Source: a virus (Duplodnaviria > Heunggongvirae > Uroviricota > Caudoviricetes). Taken from it: a DNA stretch of 37,331 nucleotides. The translations under genes were made by a program, and so were the position numbers. Shown here piece by piece: positions 1,245-31,303 of this stretch; position 1 is the first letter of the stretch; each line of letters starts with the position of its first letter. The DNA lies in IMG/VR virus record IMGVR_UViG_2537561506_000022, positions 1-37,331 of that record. One strand, written 5' to 3'. The notes below the pieces were generated by a model. That model worked only from the letters and a program-made list of their open reading frames with translations. It had not been told where the DNA came from and did no database searches.

Positions 1245-1259
1245 TTACCTTTCAGGTGA
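1245..1259. promoter_or_regulatory. 15-bp palindrome TTACC-TTTCA-GGTGA (site a) in fibre / SOS-antirepressor divergent region
   Basis: Inverted repeat read directly; member of a family found at about 13 intergenic positions; preceded by an AACCACATA block also found at 21063 and 28142. Confidence 0.4.
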
Positions 1260-1296
1260 TTCGCAAAACGTGCTGGATAGCAAACAAATTATTTGA

Positions 1297-1316
1297 TACT
1301 GTATATTTATACAGTT
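1297..1316. promoter_or_regulatory. LexA (SOS) box
   Basis: tactgtatatttatacagtt = CTGT-N8(AT-rich)-ACAG, matching the E. coli LexA box consensus TACTGTATATATATACAGTA; sits about 20 nt upstream of the ATG at 1336. Confidence 0.7.
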
Positions 1317-1335
1317 ATTGCATGGAGAAGATAAG

Positions 1336-1593
1336 ATGCAGCAGTATCACTATCCACTGGAAGACGGATTTACCGAAAGGATTCACACGCCGGGAGGCGT
1401 CAGGTCACTGGTGGAGGGATCGCACTTGATGAAATTACTCCGGGATCTCGATAAGGATGGATTTAATGTCGATGGCCCACTTGCCGAACTGACTGCACTG
1501 ATTAACTACGTCACCAGCTCGCAGATGTCTATGCAGGATCTGCAAACACATCTCGACTATTGTGCCGAACAATTACGTAAACAAACCAGATAA
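1336..1593 (+). CDS. Small stand-alone antirepressor-like protein (homologue of the shared Ant C-terminal domain), probably SOS-controlled
   Basis: ATG at 1336 with GGAG at 1324-1327 (track ORF 1318 starts at TTG); 85 aa; about 45% identical to the C-terminal 65 aa shared by the three larger antirepressors (H-P-GV..L.E.S.LM.LL..L..DG..V.G..AELT...QTH..Y). Confidence 0.6.
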   Translation: MQQYHYPLEDGFTERIHTPGGVRSLVEGSHLMKLLRDLDKDGFNVDGPLAELTALINYVTSSQMSMQDLQTHLDYCAEQLRKQTR

Positions 1594-1611
1594 GGTTTGC
1601 AATTACCAAAA

Positions 1612-1655
1612 GGAGTGCTTATATTTACCTTTGCGGTAAATTTACATCGCACTCC
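1612..1655. repeat. 44-bp extended inverted repeat (GGAGTGC...GCACTCC) enclosing palindrome site b TTACC-TTTGC-GGTAA (1625..1639)
   Basis: Read directly: GGAGTGC at 1612-1618 pairs with GCACTCC at 1649-1655; the inner 15-mer matches the operator family. Confidence 0.45.
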
Positions 1656-1731
1656 TCTTGTGCCATAGTAATCGGGCACTGGCAAAATCCAGTGCCGGGA
1701 TTGGCGTCCCGGATTACTAAAAGGCGCATTC

Positions 1732-1752
1732 ACCGCGCAAGCGGTTTTTTTA
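1732..1752 (+). terminator. Intrinsic terminator (ACCGC-GCAA-GCGGT plus T7 run)
   Basis: 5-bp stem with GNRA tetraloop followed by TTTTTTT; lies between the small antirepressor gene and the Bro-N antirepressor gene. Confidence 0.5.
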
Positions 1753-1850
1753 TGCGTATAGCACGGCCACATTCGTATTATGGTGGGCTGTGTGGGGGCA
1801 CCGAAAGGTGCGCCGGGTCCTTTTAGCCGGTTACGCCAACCCTGCACAGT

Positions 1851-1883
1851 TCACCACCAACCGATTGGCGTCGGTAGTGGTGA
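1851..1883 (+). promoter_or_regulatory. Hairpin TCACCAC...GTGGTGA about 25 nt upstream of the Bro-N antirepressor start
   Basis: TCACCAC (1851-1857) / GTGGTGA (1877-1883) with inner ACCGA-TTGGCG-TCGGT; a related ATCACCAG-N7-CTGGTGAT element precedes the antirepressor at 35393. Confidence 0.35.
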
Positions 1884-1908
1884 TTAACCAGACTAAAAGG
1901 TAACCACT

Positions 1909-2604
1909 ATGACAGCTACAAAAAGCACGTCCATTTTTTCTTTCGAATCCCAAGCCGATATACGAGTAATCGTCATTAATGGTGAGCCATGGTTTATCGC
2001 TTCAGATGTTTGTCGGGCTATAGGCATAGCAAACCATCGAGATGCTGTTCGAAAACTTGATGATGATGAGAAGGGCGTCGCTTCAACCGACACCCCTGGC
2101 GGTGAGCAAGAATCGATCATCATCTCCGAGTCAGGCCTCTACACACTGATCCTCCGCTGCCGCGACGCAGTGACACCAGGCACTATCCCCTACCGCTTTC
2201 GTAAATGGGTTACAGGTGAGGTTCTTCCTCAGATCCGCCGCACCGGAAGCTACATTAAAAACTCGCTCCCGCAGGAAGAACGCATAAAGATGCTTGCCGA
2301 CCAGGTAGCCAGCGCCACGGCGTCAGCAGTGATGCAGGCGATGAAGATAGAGAACAAAACCTACAGTGCCCCGCTGAAGCCCGGCTACCGCAGCCTGATT
2401 CATTCTCCGTCTGGTGTTCTCGGCCTGACTGAGAACTCACTGCTGATGAATCTGCTGAACCAGTTACAGGAAGACGGGCATGATGTATCGGGCGCAGCGG
2501 CGGAGCTGACCACCATGTTCTGCTACATCGTCGGTGTGAGCAAATGCCTGCGTGATATCCAGACCCACGCGGAGTACATCAACGACAAGGCAGGGTTCTT
2601 CTGA
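1909..2604 (+). CDS. Phage antirepressor, Bro-N N-terminal domain plus shared C-terminal domain
   Basis: 231-aa ORF; N-terminus FSFESQADIRVIVINGEPWFIASDVCRAIGI is a Bro-N signature; C-terminal ~80 aa identical to the C-termini of ORFs 3681..4619 and 35363..36049. Confidence 0.8.
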   Translation: MTATKSTSIFSFESQADIRVIVINGEPWFIASDVCRAIGIANHRDAVRKLDDDEKGVASTDTPGGEQESIIISESGLYTLILRCRDAVTPGTIPYRFRKWVTGEVLPQIRRTGSYIKNSLPQEERIKMLADQVASATASAVMQAMKIENKTYSAPLKPGYRSLIHSPSGVLGLTENSLLMNLLNQLQEDGHDVSGAAAELTTMFCYIVGVSKCLRDIQTHAEYINDKAGFF

Positions 2605-2627
2605 CGGCGGCGGCACAGGGACGTGCC
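2366..2627 (+). repeat. Copy A of ~260-bp near-identical repeat (antirepressor C-terminal coding segment plus ~25 bp 3' flank)
   Basis: Near-identical to 35807..36071 (direct) and to the reverse complement of 3658..3920 (inverted); only a handful of substitutions seen by eye. Confidence 0.85.
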
Positions 2628-2668
2628 TTTAAATAATTCTGTACAGATTGCAGGTGAATAGCTTACTA

Positions 2669-2683
2669 TTACCTCACGGGTGA
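2669..2683. promoter_or_regulatory. Palindrome site c TTACC-TCACG-GGTGA upstream of the cargo cassette
   Basis: Matches the 15-bp palindrome family; intergenic. Confidence 0.35.
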
Positions 2684-2720
2684 TCCATAGCGATTAGGCA
2701 CCGATACAGGAGGAGCCCAC

Positions 2721-2753
2721 ATGAGAAAATTTGACGAGTACGAAGGCGTTTAA
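2721..2753 (+). CDS. Possible 10-codon leader peptide ORF (MRKFDEYEGV)
   Basis: ATG 5 nt after a strong AGGAGGAG Shine-Dalgarno; followed at 2773..2794 by a terminator hairpin and then the membrane-protein gene; attenuator-like layout. Confidence 0.25.
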   Translation: MRKFDEYEGV

Positions 2754-2772
2754 CATTCGGATAGTTTAATGA

Positions 2773-2794
2773 CGGGGCCATTAGGCCCCGTTTT
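2773..2794 (+). terminator. Hairpin CGGGGCC-ATTA-GGCCCCG plus TTTT (possible attenuator/terminator)
   Basis: 7-bp GC-rich stem followed by a short T run, located between the mini-ORF and the RBS/GTG of ORF 2813. Confidence 0.4.
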
Positions 2795-2812
2795 CATGTC
2801 TGGAGACAGTTT

Positions 2813-3352
2813 GTGTTAAGTGAAGAAATGCAATTTGCCATGGCTGTAGCTCAAATCGTAAGTGCAGTCGCGGTTTCGCTTGGCTTGTTCATAGCTATCG
2901 CTACTATTATTTATAATGTAAATACAGCGAGAAAAGTACACACTTCAGTATTCCTTGGTGAAAGCAGGTTTGATGTAGATTATAAGAAAGGCCTATCTAC
3001 TATGCGCCGCATTCACGAATCGAACAAATCATTCCGCTCTTATATGTATCCAAGCAATGGGCAGGCTGATCTTACGGATGAAGAAAAGACAGAGAAGAGA
3101 GAAATAATTTACTGCCTAGGTTTCTACGAACGCATGGCTGTGAGCGTGAAGCGGAAAACTTATGATGAGACCATGATTAAGGAAGTATTTTACAGCTCCG
3201 TTGTAAATAACTATCAGATTGCGCTACCTCTTATACAAGCCATTAGAGAAAAAGAAAACATAAACACATATTTTAAAGAATATGAATGGTTGGCCACACG
3301 ATGGAAGGATTGTCCATTGAAGGATAAATCCCCGTGGTACAAGTTTTGGTAA
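2813..3352 (+). CDS. Membrane-anchored protein of unknown function (N-terminal TM helix plus ~140-aa soluble domain); cargo candidate
   Basis: 179-aa ORF, GTG start with GGAG 7 nt upstream (alternative ATG at 2828); hydrophobic segment FAMAVAQIVSAVAVSLGLFIAIATIIY; locally AT-rich; no family recognised by eye. Confidence 0.6.
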   Translation: MLSEEMQFAMAVAQIVSAVAVSLGLFIAIATIIYNVNTARKVHTSVFLGESRFDVDYKKGLSTMRRIHESNKSFRSYMYPSNGQADLTDEEKTEKREIIYCLGFYERMAVSVKRKTYDETMIKEVFYSSVVNNYQIALPLIQAIREKENINTYFKEYEWLATRWKDCPLKDKSPWYKFW

Positions 3353-3445
3353 GCCCGCGTTGCGGGCTTTTTTATGGACGAAACAAAAGTTAGTGCTACA
3401 CTCATTGACGCCACATTGAGGTGGCTTATAGATGGAAATTTCACA

Positions 3446-3607: not shown

Positions 3608-3630
3608 AAACAAGGCCGCGAAAGCGGCCT
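3603..3630 (-). terminator. Intrinsic terminator for the leftward antirepressor transcript (AGGCCGC-GAAA-GCGGCCT plus U-run on minus strand)
   Basis: 7-bp stem with 4-nt loop; minus-strand reading gives the hairpin followed by TGTTTTTAAC. Confidence 0.55.
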
Positions 3631-3657: not shown

Positions 3658-3920
3658 CACGTCCCTGTGCCGCCGTTCTGTCAGAAGAACCCTGCCTTGT
3701 CGTTGATGTATTCCGCGTGCGTCTGGATATCACGCAGGCATTTGCTCACACCGACGATGTAGCAGAACATGGTGGTCAGCTCCGCCGCTGCGCCCGATAC
3801 ATCATGCCCGTCTTCCTGTAACTGGTTCAGCAGATTCATCAGCAGTGAGTTCTCAGTCAGGCCGAGAACACCAGACGGCGAATGAATCAGACTGCGGTAG
3901 CCTGGCTTCAATGGATAACC
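3658..3920 (-). repeat. Copy B (inverted) of the ~260-bp antirepressor C-terminal repeat
   Basis: Reverse complement matches copies A and C; slightly more diverged at its 5' end. Confidence 0.85.
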
Positions 3921-4619
3921 ATAACATTTTGTCTGTGTTTTAATTGCCTCACGAAGCGCATCTAACATCTTGACTGCCACTTCATCATTCTCTGATGCAG
4001 ATCCAGCAGGGAGATACTCCCCTTCAAGCGGAACCCGAGCAACAAGAGACAACGCTTCGGCAAATTGATCTTCACCAATTTCTTTGTACGAACAGCCAAA
4101 ATGAGATTTCAGTGACGACCACATGGTGATCATCGCCTTAGCCTGTTTTTCTTTTGGCAGAGACTGACCGCGACTCATGACGAGTTGTTTAATGGCTTCC
4201 TGCTGTTCAGTTGTTATTTTACCCGGCAACGCCTTTTTAGCTTTGCGTGGGTTAACCACATGGCCTTTAGTCCAGTACTCGTAGAGCACATCGTCACACT
4301 CTTCCTGATACTGGATTACCTTGTCGCGGATTTCAGGGCGGACTTTGTTAGGGCTGATGCTGTTCAACCAAGCTGCCAATTTTCGTAAAGCCATACAAAT
4401 CATGGCTTGCACCCCACCGGCAGAAGGTATGGTGATTTCCACCATACCCTTCGAGAAGCGTTGAGAAATCTTCTTATGTTGAGATTTCCAGTCTAGCCCC
4501 ATTCCCTCAACGATAGGTTTCATTGGGGTATACGGTTCGCCGTTGTGATTGACAACATAAAGCTCTGCGCCGTGGAATGGCACGTTGATAGTAGATACTG
4601 CTGTTGCTATACTCGTCAT
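3681..4619 (-). CDS. Phage antirepressor (P22 Ant-like N-terminal region plus shared C-terminal domain)
   Basis: 312-aa ORF; position and orientation downstream of an Arc-like gene mirror the P22 immI arc-ant layout; C-terminal ~80 aa shared with ORFs 1909 and 35363. Confidence 0.75.
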   Translation of the reverse strand: MTSIATAVSTINVPFHGAELYVVNHNGEPYTPMKPIVEGMGLDWKSQHKKISQRFSKGMVEITIPSAGGVQAMICMALRKLAAWLNSISPNKVRPEIRDKVIQYQEECDDVLYEYWTKGHVVNPRKAKKALPGKITTEQQEAIKQLVMSRGQSLPKEKQAKAMITMWSSLKSHFGCSYKEIGEDQFAEALSLVARVPLEGEYLPAGSASENDEVAVKMLDALREAIKTQTKCYGYPLKPGYRSLIHSPSGVLGLTENSLLMNLLNQLQEDGHDVSGAAAELTTMFCYIVGVSKCLRDIQTHAEYINDKAGFF

Positions 4620-4668
4620 GTCGTTAATTCCTATACGTAGTTTTACGATACTGAAGCCCTGACGGTCT

Positions 4669-4682
4669 GGCCACCGTGGGGC
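4669..4682. promoter_or_regulatory. Palindrome GGCCACCGTGGGGC in the arc-ant intergenic region
   Basis: Shares the CCACCGTGGGG core with 4874..4888; a GAAGCCC/GGGCTTC hairpin is also present here. Confidence 0.35.
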
Positions 4683-4691
4683 TTCGCTGTT

Positions 4692-4859
4692 TTATGCCAC
4701 GCTATTCTTCTCACCAGTGAGTCCATACACTTTCCTCAGCTGATAGATAATCTCTGTATTGAACTTTCGGCATTCTTTTTCGCCATTTCTTTCAATAGCT
4801 AACTTCACATCGTCCGGAAAACGAACTCGTCGTTGACACATCTCTTTTGCTTTTTGCAT
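4692..4859 (-). CDS. Arc-like ribbon-helix-helix repressor
   Basis: ATG at 4857..4859 (reverse) with GGAG 7 nt upstream (track ORF extends to a GTG at 4880); RVRFPDDVK...NTEIIYQLRKV aligns with P22 Arc (NLRWPREV...NSEIYQRV). Confidence 0.55.
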   Translation of the reverse strand: MQKAKEMCQRRVRFPDDVKLAIERNGEKECRKFNTEIIYQLRKVYGLTGEKNSVA

Positions 4860-4873
4860 TTCATATCTCCTTA

Positions 4874-4888
4874 GCCCCACCGTGGGGC
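4874..4888. promoter_or_regulatory. 15-bp perfect palindrome GCCCCAC-C-GTGGGGC, candidate Arc/Mnt-type operator
   Basis: Sits next to the Arc-like RBS in the divergent arc/mnt control region; CACCGTG half-sites recur at 4899-4907 and, inverted, at 4926-4932. Confidence 0.45.
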
Positions 4889-4979: not shown

Positions 4980-5411
4980 ATGAGCAGAGAAGATCCACAA
5001 CTAAGGATCAGACTTCCCGTCGAAGTAAAAGAAAAAATAGAAATTTCTGCAAAAGCCAATAAGCGATCAATGAACGCTGAAATAGTACAACGTCTTGACA
5101 CCAGCTTTCTGAAAGATATTCATGAAGATGACGTAATTTCTGCTTATGAAGCAAAAATCATTGCAAACAATGCACGACATGAAATATCAAATATTATTTT
5201 CAAAAGAACCTTTAATGAAATTAATAAGAAAATAACACTTGGACATACAAGTTTTTATATAAACCTTAATGACCTTGAACTGGAATCACTTGCAGATAAT
5301 GATTACCAGATCATCTTTGAAAAAACATTTAATAAGCTCAATGAACTAGGTTACATCATCTGTGAAAACTCATGGGATGCAGATGGTTTTGGAATTGAAA
5401 TACCTGAATAG
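4980..5411 (+). CDS. Mnt-like ribbon-helix-helix repressor with a ~60-aa C-terminal extension
   Basis: ATG at 4980 with GGTGA 5 nt upstream; SREDPQLRIRLPVEVKEKIEISAKANKRSMNAEIVQRL aligns closely with P22 Mnt (ARDDPHFNFRMPMEVREKLKFRAEANGRSMNSELLQIV). Confidence 0.7.
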   Translation: MSREDPQLRIRLPVEVKEKIEISAKANKRSMNAEIVQRLDTSFLKDIHEDDVISAYEAKIIANNARHEISNIIFKRTFNEINKKITLGHTSFYINLNDLELESLADNDYQIIFEKTFNKLNELGYIICENSWDADGFGIEIPE

Positions 5412-5474
5412 GAAGAACAAAAGGCGTGTACATATTACACGTCTTTAATACAATTGAAAAACGCCACATTACTG

Positions 5475-6065
5475 ATGTATGTTACAACAAGGAGCGATAT
5501 TTTGAAAACCATATCTATATTAAAGGTTGCATTAGGCGTCGCTATTATTTTGACTCTCTCAATATTGTTTTATTTTTACCACAAACAAACTGCTATTGCT
5601 CTTGATAGTCACGCGGCAAACTCATTTTTCTCAGAGTACATAGTGCCGCTATCAGGAAGCGGTATAACAAATAAATATACTGACTATGACATCAAATATG
5701 GAATTGATGATGGGGAGACTATTGTATTACATGTAATCATTAAAAACCTAATGACAGTAAATAAAAATACAGACTTCAACGATAAAAATACAATACATCA
5801 CAACAACAGCAAAACATTAATTTCTTATAGTAGCAACATCTATACGGATAAATACCTAAAATACATATCAGAAGATACAATAAAAGAAACCCGCGCAAAG
5901 TTAAAAAACATATATTGTGCATCCGGCAGTTTTCACAAATTATCGCCGCAAGAGCGTTTATTCTACGAAGCAAGAAAACAACGTAAGTCAATAATATTAC
6001 ATTATTATGCTGATTCAGGGGAGACACTCATATTTAATATTGGGGTTTCCCCTGAATCATGCTAA
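5475..6065 (+). CDS. Low-GC membrane-anchored protein of unknown function; candidate superinfection-exclusion protein by position (P22 sieA-equivalent)
   Basis: Track ORF 5454..6065; likely start is ATG 5475 or TTG 5502 (the TTG has AAGGAG 7 nt upstream); hydrophobic ILKVALGVAIILTLSILFYFY; very AT-rich with N/K/Y-rich codon use. Confidence 0.55.
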   Translation: MYVTTRSDILKTISILKVALGVAIILTLSILFYFYHKQTAIALDSHAANSFFSEYIVPLSGSGITNKYTDYDIKYGIDDGETIVLHVIIKNLMTVNKNTDFNDKNTIHHNNSKTLISYSSNIYTDKYLKYISEDTIKETRAKLKNIYCASGSFHKLSPQERLFYEARKQRKSIILHYYADSGETLIFNIGVSPESC

Positions 6066-9091: not shown

Positions 9092-11808
9092 TATTTAGAT
9101 CCCCACGAAAAGTAATCTTTAAATTTGTCCATACGTTCGTTATGCAGGCGCTGATACTGCTCATCCAGAGCGCGATGCTTGTCTTTGAAGTTTCGTATAG
9201 CCTGTCCACGCATAATTTCTTCCTGCTCGTACTGCTCCCGTTCCTGCTGCATTTTCTTATAAGGTTCCCAATCTTCTAGTGATGGTTCCCAACGCATAGG
9301 ACGCCCATGTTTGTTATAAAACGGCTGGACCCGATCGATGCCATTTTCATCCTTAGTTCTTACCATAATGGCGTAATCACCATTACGAGGTGTTAACACG
9401 TCAGGGGTTATGAATAATTCTCCATTAATACGACTCTCAGGGGTTTTTGTCTCAACTACAGGAGCATTACCTGACGTGATCCCAAGCAACGTCGGACTGG
9501 TTGTTATAATCTCTTTGCGCTCACCGTACATCAGCCGTTCTTTTTCAGCTTTCCACTGCGCCGCCTGCCAGCCTGACGGCCCATATTGATAAAGCGCCTC
9601 CGGTGCATATTTCATAAACTGCGCTTCTCCGTTAACCTCGCTGATACTCCAGGTGCGGGCTATCTGCTGGTTGGTCATTTGCTTCGCTACGTCAGCGTTA
9701 CCACCAGCAACGCGGTAGTTAATGTCATACAGCGTCTGATAGTCATTACGGAATCTAGCTGCTTCCGGCGTCTGGTCATCCGCAGACGGATCCCAACGGA
9801 ACCACTGCGCCATATTGCTGACAGCAGAATTCATCGCCTTGCTGCGATTATTTTTGTACTCTTTTGAACTCTGCGTTGATGCCAATTGAGCTTTAAGAGC
9901 ATCGGTCTGGTTGTACGTCAGGTTCTGCGCCTGCTCGATAGCCGCATCAGCAGACATGCCAGAATCTGTTAGTTGCTTAACAGTCAGATAAAAACCCTGC
10001 ATATCCTTCGGCATATTTCCAATAGATGCATTGTCTGTTTCATATAACCGACTAAACAAATTCGCTGCATTTTTAACCACTTCCTGATTGCTGGATCTGG
10101 ATACTGCTGAAAGCTGCGTGATGACCTGCGAAGGCATGATGCCAGTCTGAGCCACAAGCCGAACAACCCCATCATGAGTGGAGGCATCATTAATACGAAA
10201 GTTCTGCGCCATTTCTGTGTAATCAGCAGCTTTCTGCATTGATTTGTTGCTTGGGTCTAATTTTTCACCTATTGTCAGCGCCTCATTGAATCTGCGTGAA
10301 TCACGTTGCGCCTGAATTGCTTCATTTGATCGCTGAAGCAATGCAGACAATTTTCCGTAAGCATCGAGTTTTAACGCATAGTGAGGATCGTTAACCTCAG
10401 GCTTCACTTTCTGCATTTCTTCTTGCTGCTGAGAAGGAGGTAAATACTGAATTGCCTGGAATATTCTCGCGTTATCAATCGCTATATCCAGTTGATTGAT
10501 TATTTTATCTGCATTTTTTCCATACCCCCTGATGATAGTCTCCTGAGCCGGTATATAATCTGGAACCTCACCGTTATATAGCTGGGCCATGGTGTTATTA
10601 ATAGCTGGCTCAAGCTGTTCTAATATTAACTTCCTTTGCTTTTCTATCTGACTATTAGCAAGGTTATCTATTTGATAAATAGTCAGCGGATCCATTCCAG
10701 TTTTATTTTTTCTATATCGGGAAAGCCACCCTTGTGTTTCTGATGGAAGATTTCGGATAAATTCTTCTTCTGATATTTCACCTTTACGTGGATCACCGAC
10801 TTTGGCGATCAGTTTATCCACGTTACCCATCCCCCAGTTATATGCTGCTCCGGTCAATATTTCGGAGCCGTACTTACCATACAGTTGATTTACATAGTCA
10901 CTGGCGAGCATTTCATGCTGTTGTTCGTCCGTAGGGTTGTATTTAACGCCACGCTTGGCCGCCAGTTCTTTCCCTGTGCCCGGCATTAACTGGTATTTCC
11001 CCTGGGCTCTCTCTCCAGAAGATGTTATCGGTCCTTCAAGAAGACTACCATCAGGATTAAAATGTCGATCACCTGATTCAACAAGGCGTATGGCACGCAT
11101 GTCCATGCCTCCAGAATCATTTTTCTGAAACAGACCATTTAGCCATCCTTCTGGATTGGCAGCGGCATAATTCTTCGCCCGCATTTCTGTGGCACGGCGA
11201 TCATCACTTTCTATTTCTTCCAGAATGCGTTCTTGTGACCATCCCCTGGCAGCTCCATATCTAGCAATGGCTACCATTCTGGAATTTCTGGCTAAAGTGG
11301 CAGTTTGCGGGTCATTCCAGGCATCCGCTTCATTTTGTATCCATAATTTTCTCGTTGCCTGATTTTGCTCATCTTCATAGGCATTTGTCTGCCCTATCTC
11401 ATGTCTGAGAACTCCAGTACTGAACTGAATTTTCTGTGTTCTGGCTTGTTGCAAAAACATATTTCTTGCTGCTTCATCAGTCAATGAAGCAGCTATTTCT
11501 TCCACATCCTGATCAAATCCAGATATGTACTCTTGCCCCTTACCAATCGCATTTTTGCCTTGTTGTGCATAAAAACCGGTTTGAGGGTTATAAAGACGTT
11601 CATTGCTGCGCTGATTAAGCTGAAGGATGGCATCCTGAGACAATGCAACATTCGCTTTCTGCCTGGCTTCACCATATGCCACCGCATACTGATCTGCGAC
11701 ATTCGCCAGCACCTGACCTGCTTGAGGAACATCGAAGATCTGAAAACCACCGGTTTGCACACCACGACTTTGCACCTGGCGTCCGGATGTAGTAGGAACA
11801 ACTGGCAT
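9091..11808 (-). CDS. Internal virion protein with lytic transglycosylase (SLT) domain (T7 gp15/gp16-like, 905 aa)
   Basis: Contains VESGDRHFNPDG...GKYQLMPGTG, matching the SLT ES...YQLM catalytic signature; position in the T7-like block. Confidence 0.8.
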   Translation of the reverse strand: MPVVPTTSGRQVQSRGVQTGGFQIFDVPQAGQVLANVADQYAVAYGEARQKANVALSQDAILQLNQRSNERLYNPQTGFYAQQGKNAIGKGQEYISGFDQDVEEIAASLTDEAARNMFLQQARTQKIQFSTGVLRHEIGQTNAYEDEQNQATRKLWIQNEADAWNDPQTATLARNSRMVAIARYGAARGWSQERILEEIESDDRRATEMRAKNYAAANPEGWLNGLFQKNDSGGMDMRAIRLVESGDRHFNPDGSLLEGPITSSGERAQGKYQLMPGTGKELAAKRGVKYNPTDEQQHEMLASDYVNQLYGKYGSEILTGAAYNWGMGNVDKLIAKVGDPRKGEISEEEFIRNLPSETQGWLSRYRKNKTGMDPLTIYQIDNLANSQIEKQRKLILEQLEPAINNTMAQLYNGEVPDYIPAQETIIRGYGKNADKIINQLDIAIDNARIFQAIQYLPPSQQQEEMQKVKPEVNDPHYALKLDAYGKLSALLQRSNEAIQAQRDSRRFNEALTIGEKLDPSNKSMQKAADYTEMAQNFRINDASTHDGVVRLVAQTGIMPSQVITQLSAVSRSSNQEVVKNAANLFSRLYETDNASIGNMPKDMQGFYLTVKQLTDSGMSADAAIEQAQNLTYNQTDALKAQLASTQSSKEYKNNRSKAMNSAVSNMAQWFRWDPSADDQTPEAARFRNDYQTLYDINYRVAGGNADVAKQMTNQQIARTWSISEVNGEAQFMKYAPEALYQYGPSGWQAAQWKAEKERLMYGERKEIITTSPTLLGITSGNAPVVETKTPESRINGELFITPDVLTPRNGDYAIMVRTKDENGIDRVQPFYNKHGRPMRWEPSLEDWEPYKKMQQEREQYEQEEIMRGQAIRNFKDKHRALDEQYQRLHNERMDKFKDYFSWGSK

Positions 11809-19127: not shown

Positions 19128-20803
19128 TGTGATTGCCCACCCTGACCACTAACTGCATTCGCCATAGCTGACAAAACACTCGGATCCGAAGTTTTAGCTT
19201 CGCTTAGCGTCTTGGCACCCTGTGCCGCCGCCATCCCCATCGCCATCATTTGTTGCTGCTGTTGCTGCTGTGCCCGTTGCTGGCGAGCCTGATCAACCTG
19301 TTCCTGCGGAACAATGACGGTTGGAGACACTCCGGACATATCAGCGAATGCATCGATCGCCTGATCAACGTTGAGTTTGTCGAGAGCTTCTGGTTTCGCT
19401 TGCGCAAGTTGACCAATGAAGTTAACCGTGGACGCCAGACTGGACAGGCCGATAGACTTCTGCGCCTGAGCCATGACGGAAATGTATTCGACCTTCAGGG
19501 GCATGCCTTCCATCGCGTCAGGCGGTGGCGGCAGCATGTTTTTACGCACCATCATCGAGAAAGCGCGGTCAATGAGAGGATTAAGACATTCGTCGTTCAG
19601 ACGCTCCAGAACCGGCCCCAACATCAGAAGTTTTTCTTCTTTCATTTCGATCACCGCTTCAACAGGCATCGAGCGGGTATTGATGTTCTGCAACATCATG
19701 AACAGATCGACAAAGTAGGCGCTGTTAATGATTTGACGAGTGTCCTGAATGTCTGCTACCAGATCTGCTGTACTGGGGTTAACCAGATAAGCAGGCCTGA
19801 AACCATCCTGACCAGTAATCTGATCGATATACGTGATGTCGCCAGGAAGAAGGGAGGCGCGCTGATTCTTGAGGGAAGTCGGAGCAACCATCGGCGGATT
19901 GGTGGCTTTATCAATCAACTGCGACTTGCGCTTCTGAAGAAGCTGCAATGCCTTAACAGGTCCAAGCGCCAGCATACCCGGGCATGATGATCCATAAACA
20001 TCTTCGCCGTTAACTTCCCAGCGCGGAGCCATAATTGGAAACTCATCGAATCCGGACTCACGCAACAACTTGTCGTTATCGCCGCCAACCTCGTAATAAA
20101 CCGATTTGAATGGCTTGTTCTTGCTATCCAGCTTCGATGTATCGCGGTCAATGTTCGGGTAAACCGAATGCATCACCTCAATCCACTTCTCGTAGGTGCC
20201 AATTTCCCACATGCTTTTTACGTATTCGCTGACGTTATTTAGCCCGAACTCCTGAACAAGCTGACGAACAGTCATAGAGAACTTGCGAAAACAGGTGTCC
20301 ACACTGCCACGAGGTGAGTTAGCCAGGTAGTAACTACCTATCGGGAATGGCATTGTGCGAATGATGTCCTCGTCATCCTCCAGCACCGCCATTGCACCAG
20401 TGCTGTATGTGCCGAGGCTTCCGTATAACTGCGGAAGAGACTGGTAGAGATTCGAATTATTGAACATATCATTCATGCGGTTCTGCACCGCCTCAAGCCA
20501 CAACTTAACAGGGCCATAATCCATCATTTCAGGATCTGGCGTAGCCAGGCGAAACCACGGACGCGCGGGGCTTGTGATGCCTGACATCATGCCGCTGGCG
20601 AGAGTGCGCGCCGCCATAGTCCCGGTCGAATCAATAATGCGTGTATTGCGTCGATCGTTACGGTTGACCTCAGAAGTCAGAAAGCGGGAACCACGCGGGT
20701 TGATGTAATCACTCAACTCGCGCCAGTGCGGCTCGAACGACTGACGCTCGCTTTCAAGTTGTGCGAACTGTTTGTTCAATCGCTCTTTAGTTGTTTCCGC
20801 CAT
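19124..20803 (-). CDS. Portal (head-tail connector) protein, T7 gp8-like
   Basis: 559 aa; Gln/Ala/Met-rich C-terminus (RQQRAQQQQQQQMMAMGMAAAQGA) resembles the T7 gp8 C-terminus. Confidence 0.8.
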   Translation of the reverse strand: MAETTKERLNKQFAQLESERQSFEPHWRELSDYINPRGSRFLTSEVNRNDRRNTRIIDSTGTMAARTLASGMMSGITSPARPWFRLATPDPEMMDYGPVKLWLEAVQNRMNDMFNNSNLYQSLPQLYGSLGTYSTGAMAVLEDDEDIIRTMPFPIGSYYLANSPRGSVDTCFRKFSMTVRQLVQEFGLNNVSEYVKSMWEIGTYEKWIEVMHSVYPNIDRDTSKLDSKNKPFKSVYYEVGGDNDKLLRESGFDEFPIMAPRWEVNGEDVYGSSCPGMLALGPVKALQLLQKRKSQLIDKATNPPMVAPTSLKNQRASLLPGDITYIDQITGQDGFRPAYLVNPSTADLVADIQDTRQIINSAYFVDLFMMLQNINTRSMPVEAVIEMKEEKLLMLGPVLERLNDECLNPLIDRAFSMMVRKNMLPPPPDAMEGMPLKVEYISVMAQAQKSIGLSSLASTVNFIGQLAQAKPEALDKLNVDQAIDAFADMSGVSPTVIVPQEQVDQARQQRAQQQQQQQMMAMGMAAAQGAKTLSEAKTSDPSVLSAMANAVSGQGGQSQ

Positions 20804-21024: not shown

Positions 21025-21114
21025 ATCAATGACTCCGTACGCAATTAAATTATTACCAATTTAACCACATATGATTTATTTATCGTAGATAGTTGACATT
21101 TAACGCACAAATTA

Positions 21115-21129
21115 TTACCTTTCAGGTAA
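21115..21129. promoter_or_regulatory. Palindrome site d TTACC-TTTCA-GGTAA next to a TTGACA hexamer
   Basis: Perfect copy of the 15-bp palindrome; the surrounding ~70 bp resemble the region around site a (1205..1259). Confidence 0.4.
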
Positions 21130-21451: not shown

Positions 21452-21528
21452 GTGGCATTAGCTCAGTTGGACAGAGCAACCGCCTTCTAAGCGGTTGGTC
21501 GCAGGTTCGAATCCTGCATGCCACGCCA
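21452..21528 (+). tRNA. tRNA-Arg (anticodon UCU), phage-borne
   Basis: 77-nt cloverleaf read by eye: acceptor GTGGCAT/ATGCCAC, D-arm AGCTC...GAGC, anticodon stem ACCGC/GCGGT with loop CTTCTAA, T-arm GCAGGTTCGAATCCTGC, discriminator G and encoded CCA. Confidence 0.9.
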
Positions 21529-21571
21529 GAATCACGCCTAAGGACCGTGATGCCAGAAGTTCCAGGTGCTT

Positions 21572-21614
21572 GGCGGTGATAGTTTCCCTTGAAGGACTAT
21601 CACCGCCCTTTTTA
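21572..21614 (+). terminator. Intrinsic terminator downstream of the tRNA
   Basis: 12-bp stem GGCGGTGATAGT / ACTATCACCGCC followed by CTTTTTAC. Confidence 0.65.
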
Positions 21615-21691
21615 CAGCAGGACGCCATTGCGATGACTTCATGCTGTAAACCCGTACAGCCACGGAAGGCATAACTCATTGCTTCCAGTTC

Positions 21692-21716
21692 GCCCGGTTC
21701 GCCGGGCATTTTTTTA
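21692..21716 (+). terminator. Second intrinsic terminator-like hairpin, ~10 nt before the next gene's RBS
   Basis: GCCCGG-TTCG-CCGGGC followed by ATTTTTTT. Confidence 0.5.
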
Positions 21717-23664: not shown

Positions 23665-24257
23665 TGATTGCCATCCTGACGTTCTTTCAGTCTCTTCCTG
23701 GCTGCCGCTATGCGATCAGCAATTGTCACATTCACATTAACATCCAGGCGTTCTTTGAATGCGTTGACGTCGACGTGCTTACCAATCAGTTCGAGGTTCT
23801 TCACCTTGTCAGGCCATTTAATTTTTTTGAGGATTGTCTCTATCGAATCCTCGTTCATGTTCATGATGGTCGATGACAGATCAAAGCCACTAAGCGTAGT
23901 GCGCCAGATTTTCGGCCACTCACGGATTGGTTTAAGGCTCCCATCGTCGTTGAGGATATCGATCACGTCCATCTGGTCGATCTCCACCAGGCGCATGAGA
24001 ACGTAATCAGCACTGACGCGCATTCGTTTGTTGCGCTCCTCCATCAACTCGGCAATCCGTTTTTGAATGCGTTCATCGCGCATCATGACACTGGCTTTAA
24101 CTGCCGCTGTATTTGGGGAGAATCCTGCGTTAATCGCTGCCTGAGTCTGGTTTTCAGGCGTTTTGATGTATGACTGGCAATAAGCCTCCTGCATTGCTGT
24201 TAGTGGCTTAAATTGCGTTGATTTGCGTTTATAGGTTTTAGGTTCAGCAGGCATCAT
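23661..24257 (-). CDS. Terminase small subunit
   Basis: ATG-ATG at 24252..24257 (reverse) is the likely start (track ORF extends to a TTG at 24335); directly precedes the large subunit. Confidence 0.65.
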   Translation of the reverse strand: MMPAEPKTYKRKSTQFKPLTAMQEAYCQSYIKTPENQTQAAINAGFSPNTAAVKASVMMRDERIQKRIAELMEERNKRMRVSADYVLMRLVEIDQMDVIDILNDDGSLKPIREWPKIWRTTLSGFDLSSTIMNMNEDSIETILKKIKWPDKVKNLELIGKHVDVNAFKERLDVNVNVTIADRIAAARKRLKERQDGNQ

Positions 24258-24274
24258 AACCACCGTGGTAATAG

Positions 24275-24289
24275 TTACCGTTGTGGTAA
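24275..24289. promoter_or_regulatory. Palindrome site m TTACC-GTTGT-GGTAA plus adjacent near-copy, within an 11-bp direct repeat upstream of the terminase small-subunit gene
   Basis: Perfect 15-bp family member; near-copy TAACC-ACCGT-GGTAA at 24258..24272; direct repeat GTGGTAATAGT at 24265 and 24283. Confidence 0.4.
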
Positions 24290-24367
24290 TAGTACCATGC
24301 AAAATAAAGCCGCCATAGTTGGCGGCAGTATTCAAAACACATCAAATTCATCATGCATAATCCACTC

Positions 24368-24379
24368 GTGACATGTCAC
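24368..24379. promoter_or_regulatory. 12-bp perfect palindrome GTGACATGTCAC (copy 2)
   Basis: Identical to 3631..3642; located at the stop codon of ORF 24376, upstream of the terminase genes. Confidence 0.3.
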
Positions 24380-24714
24380 ACTATTAATTTCGTTTCATGC
24401 CAGCCTTTAGTCACCCAGCATTGCGAGTCACCATTGCACGGGCATGAATTAACTGGAACTCTCTCGCCGCACTTACCGCAACGTTTTCTGCTGATCGATT
24501 TTATACGCCCGCGCACGCGTGCATCATCCTGGCGGATCAGTAACGCTATATACTCACCAAATTCGTAAGGCGCACGCCCGGGGCGACGCGTGGCACAGTT
24601 ACGCTCCAGCATTTCAATTTCCTGAGCATCAAGCACAATTTCCAGCTTACGCACACCAGATGCAGCTTGTCTGGCTCTCTGAGCGGCTTTGCGCTCTGCT
24701 GCTGATTTAGCCAT
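24376..24714 (-). CDS. Hypothetical protein with C-terminal Cys cluster (CGKCG...CPC...C)
   Basis: ATG at 24712..24714 (reverse), overlapping the stop of the upstream gene by 8 nt. Confidence 0.5.
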   Translation of the reverse strand: MAKSAAERKAAQRARQAASGVRKLEIVLDAQEIEMLERNCATRRPGRAPYEFGEYIALLIRQDDARVRGRIKSISRKRCGKCGERVPVNSCPCNGDSQCWVTKGWHETKLIV

Positions 24715-28121: not shown

Positions 28122-28136
28122 TTACCTCTAAGGTAA
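28122..28136. promoter_or_regulatory. Palindrome site e TTACC-TCTAA-GGTAA, overlapping the RBS of ORF 27774..28118
   Basis: Perfect copy; followed by an AACCACATA block. Confidence 0.4.
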
Positions 28137-28183
28137 TTAAAAACCACATAAGACACGAAATCAATAGATCTAAGAATATTTTG

Positions 28184-28198
28184 TTACCTATTAGGTAA
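28184..28198. promoter_or_regulatory. Palindrome site f TTACC-TATTA-GGTAA
   Basis: Perfect copy 62 bp (centre to centre) from site e. Confidence 0.4.
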
Positions 28199-29021: not shown

Positions 29022-29833
29022 AAGAAATCCTCCCATGCTTCAGGGCTGTTCCAGTGCGGAACGTTGTTATCAGGTAATGTTGATTGCTTCTGTCTGCTAA
29101 TCTGCAGCCTCCTTGACAGCTTCTGCTCCCACTGTGCCTGATGGTATGCCTTACCCTCAGCCATCCAGTAAATTCTGAACTCTGCAAGTTCCTGTGCCGT
29201 TGGCAGACTGTCCAGGTAGATCCCCTGCAATGAGCTTTTCCGAAGAAAGTCATCTGATGGTTTCCATTGTTCATGCATTACAAATTTGCCTAATTGCCCT
29301 AGCCCACCAGGAGGAACAAAGTTATTCATCACGGCGTTGTTTGCGCCGGGGTCATGAGGCACAGAATCCCCGGTTTTTGTCCTGCTCTCCCTCTCTTGGT
29401 TAAATGACTGGTTATATGACTGGTTCTGGATCCCGTTTTTGGGATCATTCAACATCCCGTTTTTGGGATCATTCAACATCCCGTTTTTGGGTATATTCCC
29501 GTTTTCGGGTATATTCCCGTTTTCGGGTTCATTCCCCCCTTCCCGGTTGCCTTTAATGTTCCCGTTTTTGGTTATATTAAGAGAGAAAACCCGCACTCTT
29601 TTCGTCGCTCCCTTTCTCTCTCCGGTATCTGAAATAAGCCCCATTTTCATGAGCGATATAAGCCCGGCCTGCACGGTTTTTTTATTCAGGCAAGTGTCTT
29701 TAACGAGTCGTTCTATGCTGGGGTAGCAGAGGTTATATTCATCGGCTCTGTCAGCCATCGAGAGCAGTATGAGCTTTAATGATGAGCTGCCTGGATCTGT
29801 CTCCCAGGCCCAATCTGTTGCATGTCTGCTCAT
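29018..29833 (-). CDS. Replication initiator (lambda O-like) with internal peptide repeats
   Basis: 271 aa; central ENGNIPENGNIPKNGMLNDPKNGMLNDPKNG repeats are encoded by the DNA iterons; immediately followed by the P-like gene. Confidence 0.65.
   Translation of the reverse strand: MSRHATDWAWETDPGSSSLKLILLSMADRADEYNLCYPSIERLVKDTCLNKKTVQAGLISLMKMGLISDTGERKGATKRVRVFSLNITKNGNIKGNREGGNEPENGNIPENGNIPKNGMLNDPKNGMLNDPKNGIQNQSYNQSFNQERESRTKTGDSVPHDPGANNAVMNNFVPPGGLGQLGKFVMHEQWKPSDDFLRKSSLQGIYLDSLPTAQELAEFRIYWMAEGKAYHQAQWEQKLSRRLQISRQKQSTLPDNNVPHWNSPEAWEDFL
29431..29577. repeat. Iterons (candidate replication origin) inside the O-like gene
   Basis: Tandem units: two of 24 bp (tcccgtttttgggatcattcaaca), three of 18 bp (tcccgttttYgggtWYat), and two more degenerate copies. 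Confidence 0.65.
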
Positions 29834-29848
29834 GATTAATCTCCGCTA

Positions 29849-30049
29849 TCAGCTTGAATGTTGTGGGGTGGAATTAATCATGATCTGCTTAATCTCTGCC
29901 CTGATGCGACGGTTTGATTCCATGGTGCACTCAACACAGTGTCCGTTGTAAACCCAGCGTTCACTGTCATGTCCGTGCTTACATGGTTTTCCGGTGTAGT
30001 AGCGTTTAAGTCCGCGCTTTGCGGCATCAATACGTGTAATGATTTCCAT
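29849..30049 (-). CDS. Small zinc-binding protein (C-x-H...H-C-x2-C)
   Basis: Likely starts MEIITRIDAAKRG (track ORF 29849..30112 has a hydrophobic, implausible extension); sits at the lambda cII-equivalent position. Confidence 0.4.
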   Translation of the reverse strand: MEIITRIDAAKRGLKRYYTGKPCKHGHDSERWVYNGHCVECTMESNRRIRAEIKQIMINSTPQHSS

Positions 30050-30110
30050 GGTAAGCCCTGTTATTAGTATTGGGATTACGGTTATTTTGTGCTGACACAA
30101 AAAAAAGATC

Positions 30111-30128
30111 AACCAAATTTGGTTTTTT
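30111..30128. terminator. Bidirectional hairpin AACCAAA/TTTGGTT flanked by A8 and T6 runs
   Basis: 14-bp perfect palindrome at 30111..30124 with poly-A before and poly-T after; lies just after the Cro-like gene in its reading direction (tR1-like position). Confidence 0.45.
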
Positions 30129-30129
30129 A

Positions 30130-30144
30130 TTACCTTTGAGGTGA
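30130..30144. promoter_or_regulatory. Palindrome site g TTACC-TTTGA-GGTGA
   Basis: Family member immediately beside the bidirectional hairpin. Confidence 0.35.
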
Positions 30145-30199
30145 GAATAGATATGAAAAGACCGCCGGATGACGGTCTACAGAGGGTTGTGGCTGGATA

Positions 30200-30430
30200 T
30201 CATGAGTAGAAGAAGTATGCCAGTTCTGCTTTTGAGCGCAGCCATTGTCTTGTTTTACAGGCTTTAAAAAGCCCATTCATCAATACCTTACCTGGCATTT
30301 TGCGCTTACCTGTTAAGTGAGTCTGGATATAGTGACTCGTCGTTCCGGCTTCCTGTGCGAAGGCTTCACGCTCATCCGGAGTAAGTGCAAGCCAGTGCTT
30401 TTTGAAATCGAAATGTCCGTTATCGCTCAT
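30200..30430 (-). CDS. Cro-like / YdaS-like small HTH protein
   Basis: 76 aa, divergent from the repressor gene across an operator-rich 154-bp region; HTH-like EAGTTSHYIQTHLTGKRKMP. Confidence 0.5.
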   Translation of the reverse strand: MSDNGHFDFKKHWLALTPDEREAFAQEAGTTSHYIQTHLTGKRKMPGKVLMNGLFKACKTRQWLRSKAELAYFFYS

Positions 30431-30466
30431 AGCTATTGCCTGATATTTATTTCAGATAATAAATAT

Positions 30467-30529
30467 TCACCCATAAGGTAACAAAAATCAAGGATAGTTA
30501 CCTATGGGGTGCATTTACCTGTTGGGTAA
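30467..30529. promoter_or_regulatory. Three operators in the cro/repressor divergent region (h TCACC-CATAA-GGTAA; i TTACC-TATGG-GGTGC; j TTACC-TGTTG-GGTAA)
   Basis: Three 15-bp palindrome-family sites at 30467..30481, 30498..30512 and 30515..30529; a separate 9-bp AT-rich inverted repeat lies at 30443..30466. Confidence 0.5.
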
Positions 30530-30584
30530 TATTGCTTTAAATTGAATCATCTACTGATTCATATATGAGGCGATTTTCCAGAAA

Positions 30585-31169
30585 ATGAAAAGTATCCAGG
30601 ACGTCCGCAGGCAAAATCTCAACGACTTGATCGACCGTGAATTCAATGGTGTTCAGACGCGGATGGCAGAAAAACTTGGAACTCAGGCAAATCTGGTAAA
30701 CCGCTGGGCTCTTGGCAAGAAGGTTATCGGCGACCAGGTTGCGCGAAAAATTGAAGCTGCCGCCAATAAACCCCGTAACTGGCTTGATATCGATCGCTCG
30801 CTTTCTCAGGAAGGTTTTCAGCCTGTCGGCCCAAGCGACATTGGTCAGCTGGCGGCTCACAACCTGGAACGCTGGATGAGCGAAAGCCGCGACCTTTCAA
30901 CACAGGGAAAACTTCACCGCGCATCCGGCGTCGCCCAGGTGACAATCAGCCGCCTGTTAAACAATGAGGTCAGCGTTTCCATTTCCACCCTGGAGAATGT
31001 TGCATCTGCATTCGGGCGTCACGGATATGAACTACTGATTCACCCGCACGACCCTGCAACTATCAACTATGACCGCTCGCGCTACGCATTATTACCTGAA
31101 ACCGAGAAAGCAAAGATCGAAAGTTACATTGAATTTGTCATCAACCAGAACGAAAAAAACAAACAATAA
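30585..31169 (+). CDS. Prophage repressor candidate: two XRE-type HTH domains, no S24 peptidase domain
   Basis: 194 aa; HTH-like segments QTRMAEKLGTQANLVNRW and SGVAQVTISRLLNNEVSVS; divergent from the Cro-like gene; followed by a strong terminator. Confidence 0.6.
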   Translation: MKSIQDVRRQNLNDLIDREFNGVQTRMAEKLGTQANLVNRWALGKKVIGDQVARKIEAAANKPRNWLDIDRSLSQEGFQPVGPSDIGQLAAHNLERWMSESRDLSTQGKLHRASGVAQVTISRLLNNEVSVSISTLENVASAFGRHGYELLIHPHDPATINYDRSRYALLPETEKAKIESYIEFVINQNEKNKQ

Positions 31170-31191
31170 AATCATATTTTTCAGTAAGTAA

Positions 31192-31216
31192 GCCGCCAAA
31201 TGGCGGCTTTTTTATT
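31192..31216 (+). terminator. Intrinsic terminator after the repressor gene
   Basis: GCCGCC-AAAT-GGCGGC followed by TTTTTTATT. Confidence 0.7.
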
Positions 31217-31226
31217 GTCTTTTTAA

Positions 31227-31303
31227 TTACCTTACAGGTAATTTTTTTAACTCATATCTATTGACATCAAACCAAATACGCATAATTATTACCTCAACGG
31301 TAA
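31227..31303 (+). promoter_or_regulatory. PL-like early promoter region: operators k (TTACC-TTACA-GGTAA) and l (TTACC-TCAAC-GGTAA) flanking a TTGACA -35 hexamer
   Basis: Sites at 31227..31241 and 31289..31303; TTGACA at 31261..31266 with an AT-rich -10-like hexamer about 17 nt downstream; the early operon starts right after. Confidence 0.5.

Follow-up and report, generated by a model that had tools for sequence, protein, structure and literature searches.

Dispersed palindromes in an epsilon15-like prophage of Escherichia coli as probable operators of its main repressor

The DNA analysed here, called the window, is the whole 37,331-nt stretch of the IMG/VR virus record IMGVR_UViG_2537561506_000022, and the element in question is a 15-bp palindrome, TTACC-N5-GGTAA, which is dispersed through it. 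The sequence evidence makes it very probable that this palindrome is the operator of the main repressor of the prophage, Rep, and that one repressor locks each core transcription unit directly. It is also considered probable, at a lower level of confidence, that the sites in the late region contribute measurably to silencing. The palindrome sites are a rediscovery of repressor sites in another genome of the epsilon15 system, since the epsilon15 record marks these sites already. A separate element found beside them, CATATRTGGTT, is the only item that is possibly new.

On the basis of its sequence, the window was assigned to the epsilon15-like podovirus prophages of E. coli, genus Uetakevirus, because of its identity to the TL-2011b/phiV10 group and its epsilon15-type relatives. 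It is ~97% identical to the Escherichia phages TL-2011b, phiV10, PAS61, phiv142-3 and ZX5, and identity to the Enterobacter, Klebsiella and Salmonella relatives, including epsilon15, is 75-80% across aligned segments. At one end of the window is the N-terminal part of the tail-fibre gene, which starts at 1140 on the minus strand, and at the other the window reaches the integrase start codon. The immunity region was found in 557 of 5426 complete E. coli genomes.

Distribution of the palindrome in the window

The window was scanned for TTACCNNNNNGGTRA and 12 distinct exact sites were found, against 0.06 expected from dinucleotide-preserving shuffles; the best of 100 such shuffles held 2 sites. 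A mismatch-tolerant scan added the sites at 24257 (TAACCACCGTGGTAA, one mismatch) and 30498 (TTACCTATGGGGTGC, two mismatches to TTACC-N5-GGTAA). All the other operators listed in Table 1 are exact. Eight of the 12 exact sites match on both strands, and the consensus obtained by matrix scan is AATTACC-N5-GGTAATT. In a preliminary description of this DNA, 13 copies had been read by eye along with a near-copy at 24258. Twelve of them were recovered as exact sites at the same coordinates, while 30498 proved to be off-pattern; the near-copy exists, with its true start at 24257. One more match with two mismatches, at 30306 within the cro-like gene, had a low matrix score and was treated as chance.

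A gene map of the window was transferred by tblastn from TL-2011b and phiV10. Under this map the intergenic DNA comprises 2824 bp, which is 7.6% of the window, and it contains all 12 exact sites, the top 13 matrix scores and all 14 sites including the degenerate 24257 and 30498. The earlier statement that every copy is intergenic is therefore correct. The first matrix match in coding sequence is at 10874, with a score far below those of the intergenic 13. By the composition of the intergenic DNA itself, ~0.008 sites would be expected there by chance, and of the ten intergenic regions with a length of at least 100 bp, nine contain one site or more. The objection that the motif could be equally dense in coding sequence fails, because all exact sites and the 13 best matrix scores are intergenic.

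Two other origins of the copies were considered and rejected. Duplication of a promoter cassette does not fit, as the flanks of different sites are dissimilar beyond the two short motifs. A role as RNA hairpin or terminator does not fit either; the 5-bp arms are too short and the real terminators have sites on either side. It had also been proposed that AGGT of the right half-site doubles as the Shine-Dalgarno sequence of the next gene in several copies. This was seen at 28122 (GAGGTAAatcATG) and 24257 (GGTGGTTAtgATG) and not at the other 12 of the 14 sites.

Conservation of the sites in Uetakevirus phages

Seven Uetakevirus genomes were compared, namely the window, TL-2011b, phiV10, epsilon15, SPC32H, Klebsiella BUCT711 and Enterobacter Tyrion. 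When palindromes of the form 5-N(0-8)-5 were counted without bias, TTACC-N5-GGTAA ranked first in all seven. With at most one mismatch, 11-14 sites were found per genome at equivalent places; SPC32H lists 18, several of which are non-equivalent. Orthologous positions include the triplet of the OR region between the repressor and cro-like genes, the pair at the promoter PL, the pair at the mid-early promoter, and the sites at terS, the head genes and the tail fibre/ant region. Across 12 orthologous site groups, the mean pairwise difference per position was 0.023 in the half-sites (ten positions), 0.405 in the spacer (five positions) and 0.355 in the 15-bp flanks. The divergence of the half-sites is ~15-fold below that of the spacer or flanks, and strong purifying selection acts on the half-sites alone.

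The GenBank record of epsilon15 (AY150271.2) contains seven features annotated as 'protein_bind / repressor / lysogeny'. Three of them precede terS, gp3/portal and the tailspike, one is located in mid early-right operon, and three further ones are on the PL side of the repressor gene, two of which have a counterpart in Table 1. All seven annotated sites read (A)TTACC-N5-GGTAAT, and the window operators agree with the epsilon15 sequence ATTACC-N5-GGTAAT. The comparison with operators of related phages that the preliminary description had suggested returned the same palindrome at orthologous places, annotated as a repressor site in epsilon15. Operator features are absent from the annotation of the phiV10 and TL-2011b records, operators were not identified in the ZX5 paper (PMC9782041), and a keyword search of the literature returned nothing on operators in Uetakevirus.

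A scan of one genome per species gave six more prophages with this Rep, from Superficieibacter, Erwinia, Klebsiella, Scandinavium and two from Citrobacter, which have 8-13 sites each in the 12-21 kb covered per locus. Five loci whose homologue of Rep has a different helix (Paraburkholderia, Hydrogenovibrio, Thiomicrospira) had no sites except one match with a single mismatch, and no clear substitute palindrome was seen near the gene. In 13 genomes or loci the spacing of the PL and mid-early pairs is mostly 62 bp, with 63 in two cases and 61 in two, corresponding to about six helical turns.

The relatives possess further sites before the lysis cassette and upstream of int, beyond this window. 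The copy upstream of int, near attP, is TTACCYTAAAGGTAT; it has one mismatch and is found in all relatives (at 26870 in L002, 26882 in L003, 28568 in L006 and 12620 in L005). It is framed by its own inverted repeat, GACGGTA...TACCGTC, and overlaps the integrase-binding site annotated in epsilon15, so that it may belong either to Rep or to Int.

The repressor Rep

Rep is homologous over its full length to the SPC32H repressor (PDB 5D50; residues 1-190, E 4e-42). A Pfam scan returned only helix-turn-helix (HTH) families, in two regions, and no S24 (LexA-like) self-cleavage domain. The protein has an N-terminal HTH DNA-binding domain and a C-terminal HTH-like oligomerisation domain, and its gene is divergent from the cro-like gene. 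Identity of Rep across the Uetakevirus phages compared is 42-100%, with 42% to the Salmonella proteins. The recognition segment of the N-terminal HTH, NLVNRW, is invariant in five aligned Rep sequences, and NLVNRW, or TLVNRW in one case, is present wherever the palindrome occurs, both in the genus genomes and in the further prophages.

As summarised in PMC9638917, SPC32H Rep forms a tetramer on palindromic DNA, in which each DNA-binding pair is made of N-terminal domains of different dimers. The same summary describes it as not subject to SOS cleavage and as dismantled by a small tetrameric antirepressor, Ant. The repressor of phage ZX5 is identical in sequence to the window Rep; its overexpression blocked lytic growth and lowered holin mRNA by 99.97% (PMC9782041).

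Position of the operators relative to promoters

Promoters were assigned by cross-genome conservation, because generic promoter scans were not enriched over shuffles. At four promoters (PL, mid-early, terS and isrK/C4) the -10 hexamer and the operator share one base, the final T of the former being the first T of the latter. This junction is present in seven of seven genomes at PL, where the conserved form is TTGACA-17-(A/G)AT(T/C)AT, and at the mid-early promoter, where it is TTGAww-17-(T/A)T(T/A)AAT. At terS an extended -10, TGgTACTAT (24297-24289, minus), ends on the first T of the 24275 operator, and TGnTACTAT was kept in all six genomes checked. An operator which starts on the last base of the -10 covers about -7..+8, and therefore bound Rep should exclude RNA polymerase.

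Other sites showed different arrangements. TTGACA is located 16 nt upstream of the 21115 operator on the plus strand and is kept in five genomes, so that this operator probably overlaps the -10 of the divergent tRNA-Arg/p03 promoter. The 24257 site is at about +12..+26, 18 bp downstream of the 24275 operator. The centre of the 30130 operator is ~60 bp upstream of the start predicted from TTGATC-17-CAAAAT (30112-30084, minus), similar to the distal operators of PL and the mid-early promoter, and it overlaps no core promoter. Three sites between the Cro-like and repressor genes (30467, 30498, 30515) and two flanking PL (31227, 31289) were found in the arrangement described earlier. Taken together, the operator placements are those of a repressor and not of an activator.

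The 1625 operator is situated inside a longer inverted repeat, GGAGTGC...GCACTCC (1609-1655). In phiV10 the repeat around the equivalent operator grows to a near-perfect palindrome of ~41 bp.

Table 1. Positions of the operators, second elements, promoters and regulatory genes in the window, with the corresponding annotated sites of epsilon15
Feature	Position	Strand	Location and remarks	epsilon15 site
Repressor Rep, 194 aa	30585..31169	+	Two HTH domains, no peptidase S24; presumed reader of the palindrome	
cro-like gene, 76 aa	30200..30430	-	phrog_35 'transcriptional repressor'; divergent from rep	
p55	24376-24714		phrog_536, conserved candidate regulator; just upstream of terS	
Small antirepressor Ant, 85 aa	1336..1593	+	Position of SPC32H ant; divergent from tail-fibre gene (tailspike gene in SPC32H)	
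Perfect LexA box CTGTATATTTATACAG	1299..1314	.	Overlaps predicted ant promoter, -35 TTGATA at 1293-1298	
Operator TTACCTTTCAGGTGA	1245..1259	.	Divergent region of tail-fibre gene (start 1140, minus) and small ant; orthologous in 7/7 genomes	tailspike, 19895-19911
Operator	1625..1639	.	-7..+8 of TTGCAA-17-TATATT (1597-1625, plus), ahead of isrK, C4 RNA and Bro-N::Ant gene	
Operator	2669..2683	.	Ahead of DUF4760 accessory gene; weak TGTACA-18-TACTAT ends on its first T	
Operator	21115..21129	.	Between head-gene unit (minus) and divergent tRNA-Arg/p03 unit (plus)	gp3/portal, 2931-2947
Degenerate operator, 1 mismatch	24257..24271	.	Over ribosome-binding site and start codon of terS (ATG 24254, minus)	
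Operator	24275..24289	.	Straight after terminator 24309-24326, ahead of terS	terS, 12-27
Promoter-proximal mid-early operator	28122..28136	.	About -7..+8; AGGT is Shine-Dalgarno of DUF1064 gene (ATG 28118)	
Distal mid-early operator	28184..28198	.	62 bp from proximal operator	mid early-right operon, 35906-35922
Predicted mid-early sigma-70 promoter TTGATT-17-TTTAAT	28136..28164	-	Between the two operators; arrangement kept in 7/7 genomes	
Operator	30130..30144	.	Past the terminator that follows the cro-like gene	
OR site nearest cro-like gene	30467..30481	.	Spacer and -35 of predicted PR, TTGTTA-17-TATTAT (30484-30456, minus)	
Middle OR site TTACCTATGGGGTGC	30498..30512	.	Degenerate in E. coli clade; full operator in epsilon15, SPC32H and Klebsiella phages	
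OR site nearest repressor gene	30515..30529	.	From exact scan and orthologous sites	
Distal PL operator	31227..31241	.	62 bp upstream of proximal operator, just past rep terminator 31190-31209	32616-32632
Proximal PL operator	31289..31303	.	First T is last T of -10 hexamer	32554-32570
Predicted PL promoter TTGACA-17-AATTAT	31261..31289	+	10/12; best promoter match of the region	
Second element TCCATATGTGGTT	1205..1217	-	Upstream of tail-fibre gene; followed by N5-GGTAATAGAAT	
Second element TCATATGTGGTT	21063..21074	-	Upstream of head genes; followed by N5-GGTAATAATTT	
Second element CTTATGTGGTT	28142..28152	-	Within mid-early promoter spacer	
Second element, perfect palindrome AACCAAATTTGGTT	30110..30123	.	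Overlaps -35 of post-cro promoter	
Second element, degenerate	31270-31280		At PL	

A second conserved element

The preliminary description had noted a larger module shared by three regions (1195-1259, 21053-21129 and 28122-28198). The module is real and AACCACATA is present in each region, at 1205-1213, 21063-21071 and 28142-28150; on the transcribed strand it reads TATGTGGTT. By sequence comparison AACCACATA is assigned to a separate genus-conserved element, CATATRTGGTT, of which the palindromic form is AACCA-N4-TGGTT. Throughout the genus this second element occurs at five promoters, namely post-cro, mid-early, head, tail-fibre and lysis, and PL has a degenerate form of it. It is always alongside a Rep operator, over the predicted -35 or the spacer. 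Exact CANATNTGGTT occurs in the window only at 1205, 21063 and 30111/30114, and with at most one mismatch there are 24 matches against 11.5 expected.

The distance between the centres of the second element and the operator is ~19.5, 40.5-43.5 or 52.5 bp, roughly 2, 4 or 5 helical turns. In the promoters of the head genes and the tail fibre, N5-GGTAAT comes after the element. This is the half-site noted in the module earlier, and it directly precedes the best -10 candidates, TAATTT and TAGAAT. The arms of the element, wwACC...GGTww, resemble operator half-sites and have one extra base between ACC and GGT. The element is not annotated in the epsilon15 record. A fixed -10 distance from CATATRTGGTT was considered and rejected. 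The best -10s are 0, 7, 10 or 23 nt downstream at different promoters, and because of these differences no single promoter geometry fits the element.

The module had also been taken as a hint that the palindrome belongs to a shared late-promoter architecture. This does not suit the palindrome, because the early promoters PL and PR carry it just as much; such an architecture may apply instead to CATATRTGGTT within the three-region module.

A tentative proposal, made from sequence comparison and held with low confidence, is that CATATRTGGTT is a second genus-wide regulatory element, either an auxiliary site of the Rep tetramer or the site of another conserved regulator. In the former case it could be a low-affinity site for the second DNA-binding head of a tetramer anchored at a strong operator, and repression would then reach promoters that the strong operator does not overlap. 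In the latter case it could be bound by a second conserved regulator, for example the Cro-like protein or p55. No binder was singled out, because each of the genomes encodes a conserved Cro-like protein, p55 and p42; for the first two of these, sequence searches of Pfam, NCBIfam and PDB returned nothing. This companion element and the conserved ~62-bp pair spacing are the parts worth experiment.

Antirepressors and accessory modules

The small Ant, an Ant homologue under predicted control of LexA, would replace self-cleavage of the repressor. Three larger proteins have a C-terminal domain which is 40-44% identical to its 85-aa sequence. The Ant-like segments are 2356-2589 in a Bro-N protein (1909-2604), 3696-3923 in a P22_AR_N protein (3681-4619) and 35801-36034 in a 228-aa protein (35363-36049). 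On account of this recurrence, the prophage may encode four Rep-directed antirepressors with differing N-terminal modules and controls.

Between the 1625 operator and the Bro-N::Ant gene (1909-2604), tandem Rfam matches were found on the plus strand to the Hfq-binding small RNA (sRNA) isrK (77.9 bits) and the C4 antisense RNA (77.7 bits), at 1676-1751 and 1776-1861. Judged by its composition, isrK/C4/Bro-N::Ant is an antirepressor control module like P1 immI and Gifsy-1 isrK, placed under a Rep operator.

A P22-type immI module is present at 3681-4880 on the minus strand. It consists of an Arc-like gene, arc (4692-4859), ant (3681-4619, with the P22_AR N-terminal domain) and, on the plus strand, the antisense RNA sar (4621-4688; 44.8 bits, gathering score 43), and it has its own promoter-like site, TTGACA-17-GACAAT (4923-4895). 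The window scan gave no Rep operator in this module, in the two genes of 5070-6065 or in the 35262-36049 module. In the last of these, an Rfam match to sRNA-Xcc1 (62.9 bits, 35262-35351, plus) lies directly upstream of the Ant-like gene, and the opposite-strand ORF (35071-35394) is unlikely to be a gene. Thus the earlier suggestion of one regulator silencing every transcription unit has to be narrowed. It is favoured for the core units by the epsilon15 annotation, the homology of Rep, the OR/PL layout and the overlap with core promoters, but none of the sites is in the arc/ant module, among the genes of 5070-6065 or in the module of 35262-36049.

Besides the perfect LexA box at ant, a weak LexA-like box, CTGATATTTATTTCAG (CTG-N10-CAG), is located at 30440-30455, in the leader of the cro-like gene, past the predicted -10 of PR and ahead of the start codon. 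It was seen in the E. coli clade and is missing at that place in epsilon15.

Proposed mechanism

Rep would act as a non-cleavable, two-HTH repressor of the epsilon15/SPC32H type which forms tetramers. In the lysogen it is proposed to occupy the OR triplet, with the cro-proximal site inside the PR spacer, the pair bracketing PL at 62 bp, the identical 62-bp pair at the mid-early promoter, and the terS pair, which lies just past a terminator and covers the start of the gene. Rep would also occupy the single sites, located past the cro terminator, in the head/tRNA and tail-fibre/ant divergent regions and at two accessory promoters. Where the operator spans about -7..+8 or the promoter spacer, bound Rep would keep RNA polymerase out. 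At the 62-bp pairs both sites may be held on the same helix face by one tetramer or by two interacting units. Being past terminators, the terS and post-cro sites could serve as a second lock against read-through. On DNA damage LexA would leave the ant promoter and the small Ant would be made. All units would then be released at once, because Ant is expected to strip Rep from the DNA.

Weighing of alternative readings

Several points weigh against Rep as the reader of all these sites. The generic promoter scans found 10 promoters against 13.5 expected from shuffles, and 8 against 10.4. No recognisable core promoter is overlapped at 1245 or on the head-gene side of 21115, so that repression at these two places would need action at a distance. 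The operator annotation of epsilon15 may be a prediction itself. Rep specificity is constant within the genus and no substitute motif is evident at the altered-helix loci, so the evidence is one of co-occurrence and not of covariation. The Cro-like protein is as conserved as Rep and could use these sites too, in common with Rep or in competition with it. Finally, Rep binding to the palindromes, promoter occlusion, looping and the function of the late sites are inferred here.

Among the alternatives, the one that survives best is that the Cro-like protein reads the sites, mainly or in addition, and that the dispersed copies modulate lytic expression and not lysogeny. This is considered unlikely, although it has some evidence in its favour. 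The protein is predicted to be a repressor of the HTH type, and its HTH segment, AGTTSHYIQ.HLT, hardly varies within the genus, as would be expected of the reader of a conserved DNA motif. Operator sharing by both switch proteins is the rule in lambdoid phages, in which lambda Cro shares the operators of CI. However, nothing ties the Cro-like protein specifically to the motif. The helix of Rep is just as invariant, the binder annotated in epsilon15 is Rep, and repression of all late operons by a lytic-cycle protein would be counter-productive. Moreover, binding by the Cro-like protein is compatible with Rep as the main repressor and does not replace it.

It is rather less likely still that Rep binds all the sites but uses the non-promoter copies (1245, the head side of 21115, 24257 and 30130) as roadblocks to read-through or as anchors of Rep-Rep bridges which compact the prophage. 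The location of 30130 and 24275/24257 immediately downstream of terminators and of 24257 at about +12..+26 suits such a role, as does the strict conservation of the ~62-bp pair spacing. The tetramerisation domain of Rep is similar to domains that loop DNA, and octamers are suggested by contacts in the crystal (PMC9986798). Against this, the site is symmetric and lacks the orientation dependence of known stoperators, and simple occlusion is sufficient at 24275, because the extended -10 TGnTACTAT abuts the operator in all genomes.

It is very improbable that the palindrome is an element common to the promoters or is bound by a phage activator. The copies ahead of terS, of the head genes and of the tail fibre gene, the module shared by three regions, and p55 as a conserved candidate regulator encoded just upstream of terS would agree with it, but three copies are at OR and two at PL, the early promoters under immunity control, and wherever promoters could be placed the site is in repressor positions, on -7..+8 or the spacer. 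The palindrome is annotated as a repressor site in epsilon15, and the element specific to the module has a different sequence, CATATRTGGTT. The least probable reading is that the phage has recruited a transcription factor of the host which is conserved among Enterobacterales. Phages from eight host genera carry the motif unchanged although Rep identity falls to 42%, and a conserved host protein would account for this as well, but NLVNRW (TLVNRW once) of Rep is invariant wherever the motif occurs, the rep/cro triplet and PL pair form a classic immunity arrangement, we know of no E. coli regulator with this consensus, and GntR-type TTACC/GGTAA sites are without the 5-bp gap.

The palindrome as the operator of Rep remains the preferred reading, and it would have practical uses. 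It could help in the annotation of phiV10-like prophages, whose records carry no such sites, and in predicting which accessory genes escape immunity control, and Rep together with its 15-bp operator could provide clean tools for induction or silencing.

Other features of the window

A tRNA-Arg gene (anticodon TCT) is located at 21452-21528 on the plus strand. Its orientation is opposite to that of the late genes, and the p04/gp24 ORF annotated in relatives (21458-21709, minus) overlaps it with its 3' end. SPC32H annotates the tRNA-Arg, while phiV10 and TL-2011b annotate the ORF instead. The dnaT-like replication gene contains three adjacent tandem arrays at 29397-29536, with units of 12 bp (x2.4), 24 bp (x2.6) and 18 bp (x3.2). 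The units of the 24-bp array are 100% identical and each forms a hairpin. The three arrays look like origin iterons.

Comparison with known repressor systems

Judged by sequence, the window system is a member of the epsilon15/SPC32H (PDB 5D50/5D4Z) type of Rep-Ant immunity, all sequence-level defining features of which were found. It shares with these phages the palindrome, its places, the OR region between rep and the cro-like gene, full-length homology of the repressor, and a small antirepressor gene which is divergent from the tail-fibre gene and has a LexA box in front. It differs in the identity of its Rep, which is 42% to the Salmonella proteins, in the middle OR site, which the E. coli clade has in degenerate form, and in the extra operators at 1625 and 2669 in the accessory island along with three more Ant-domain genes.

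C1 of phage P1 is also a single immunity repressor with many operators scattered over many operons, antagonised by antirepressor proteins. The dispersed operators and the antirepressors are similar in the window, and here too a C4-type antisense RNA is upstream of an ant gene. The P1 operators are asymmetric 17-mers and C1 is unrelated to Rep, whereas the window site is a symmetric 5-N5-5 palindrome whose presumed reader is an HTH tetramer.

The stoperators of mycobacteriophage L5, bound by gp71, are asymmetric 13-mers which block elongation in an orientation-dependent manner. The window resembles this system in having many repressor sites in short intergenic regions, including the late region, and in the location of some copies past promoters or terminators. 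The window sites are, however, symmetric and mostly over core promoters, with no asymmetry or single orientation. The L5 stoperators are mentioned in PMC1934351.

With lambda CI the window shares three sites between divergent repressor and cro-like genes, sites at PL, and probably cooperative or looped binding. Unlike CI, the window Rep is without an S24 domain for RecA-stimulated self-cleavage, and induction would be brought about by an antirepressor. Late and accessory operons of the window have operators as well, while in lambda their control is only indirect, via Q. A common type of E. coli prophage would thus depart from the lambda scheme of indirect late-gene silencing, as a single repressor, itself controlled by an antirepressor, appears to be placed on every core operon, from the early and replication operons to those for packaging, head and tail.

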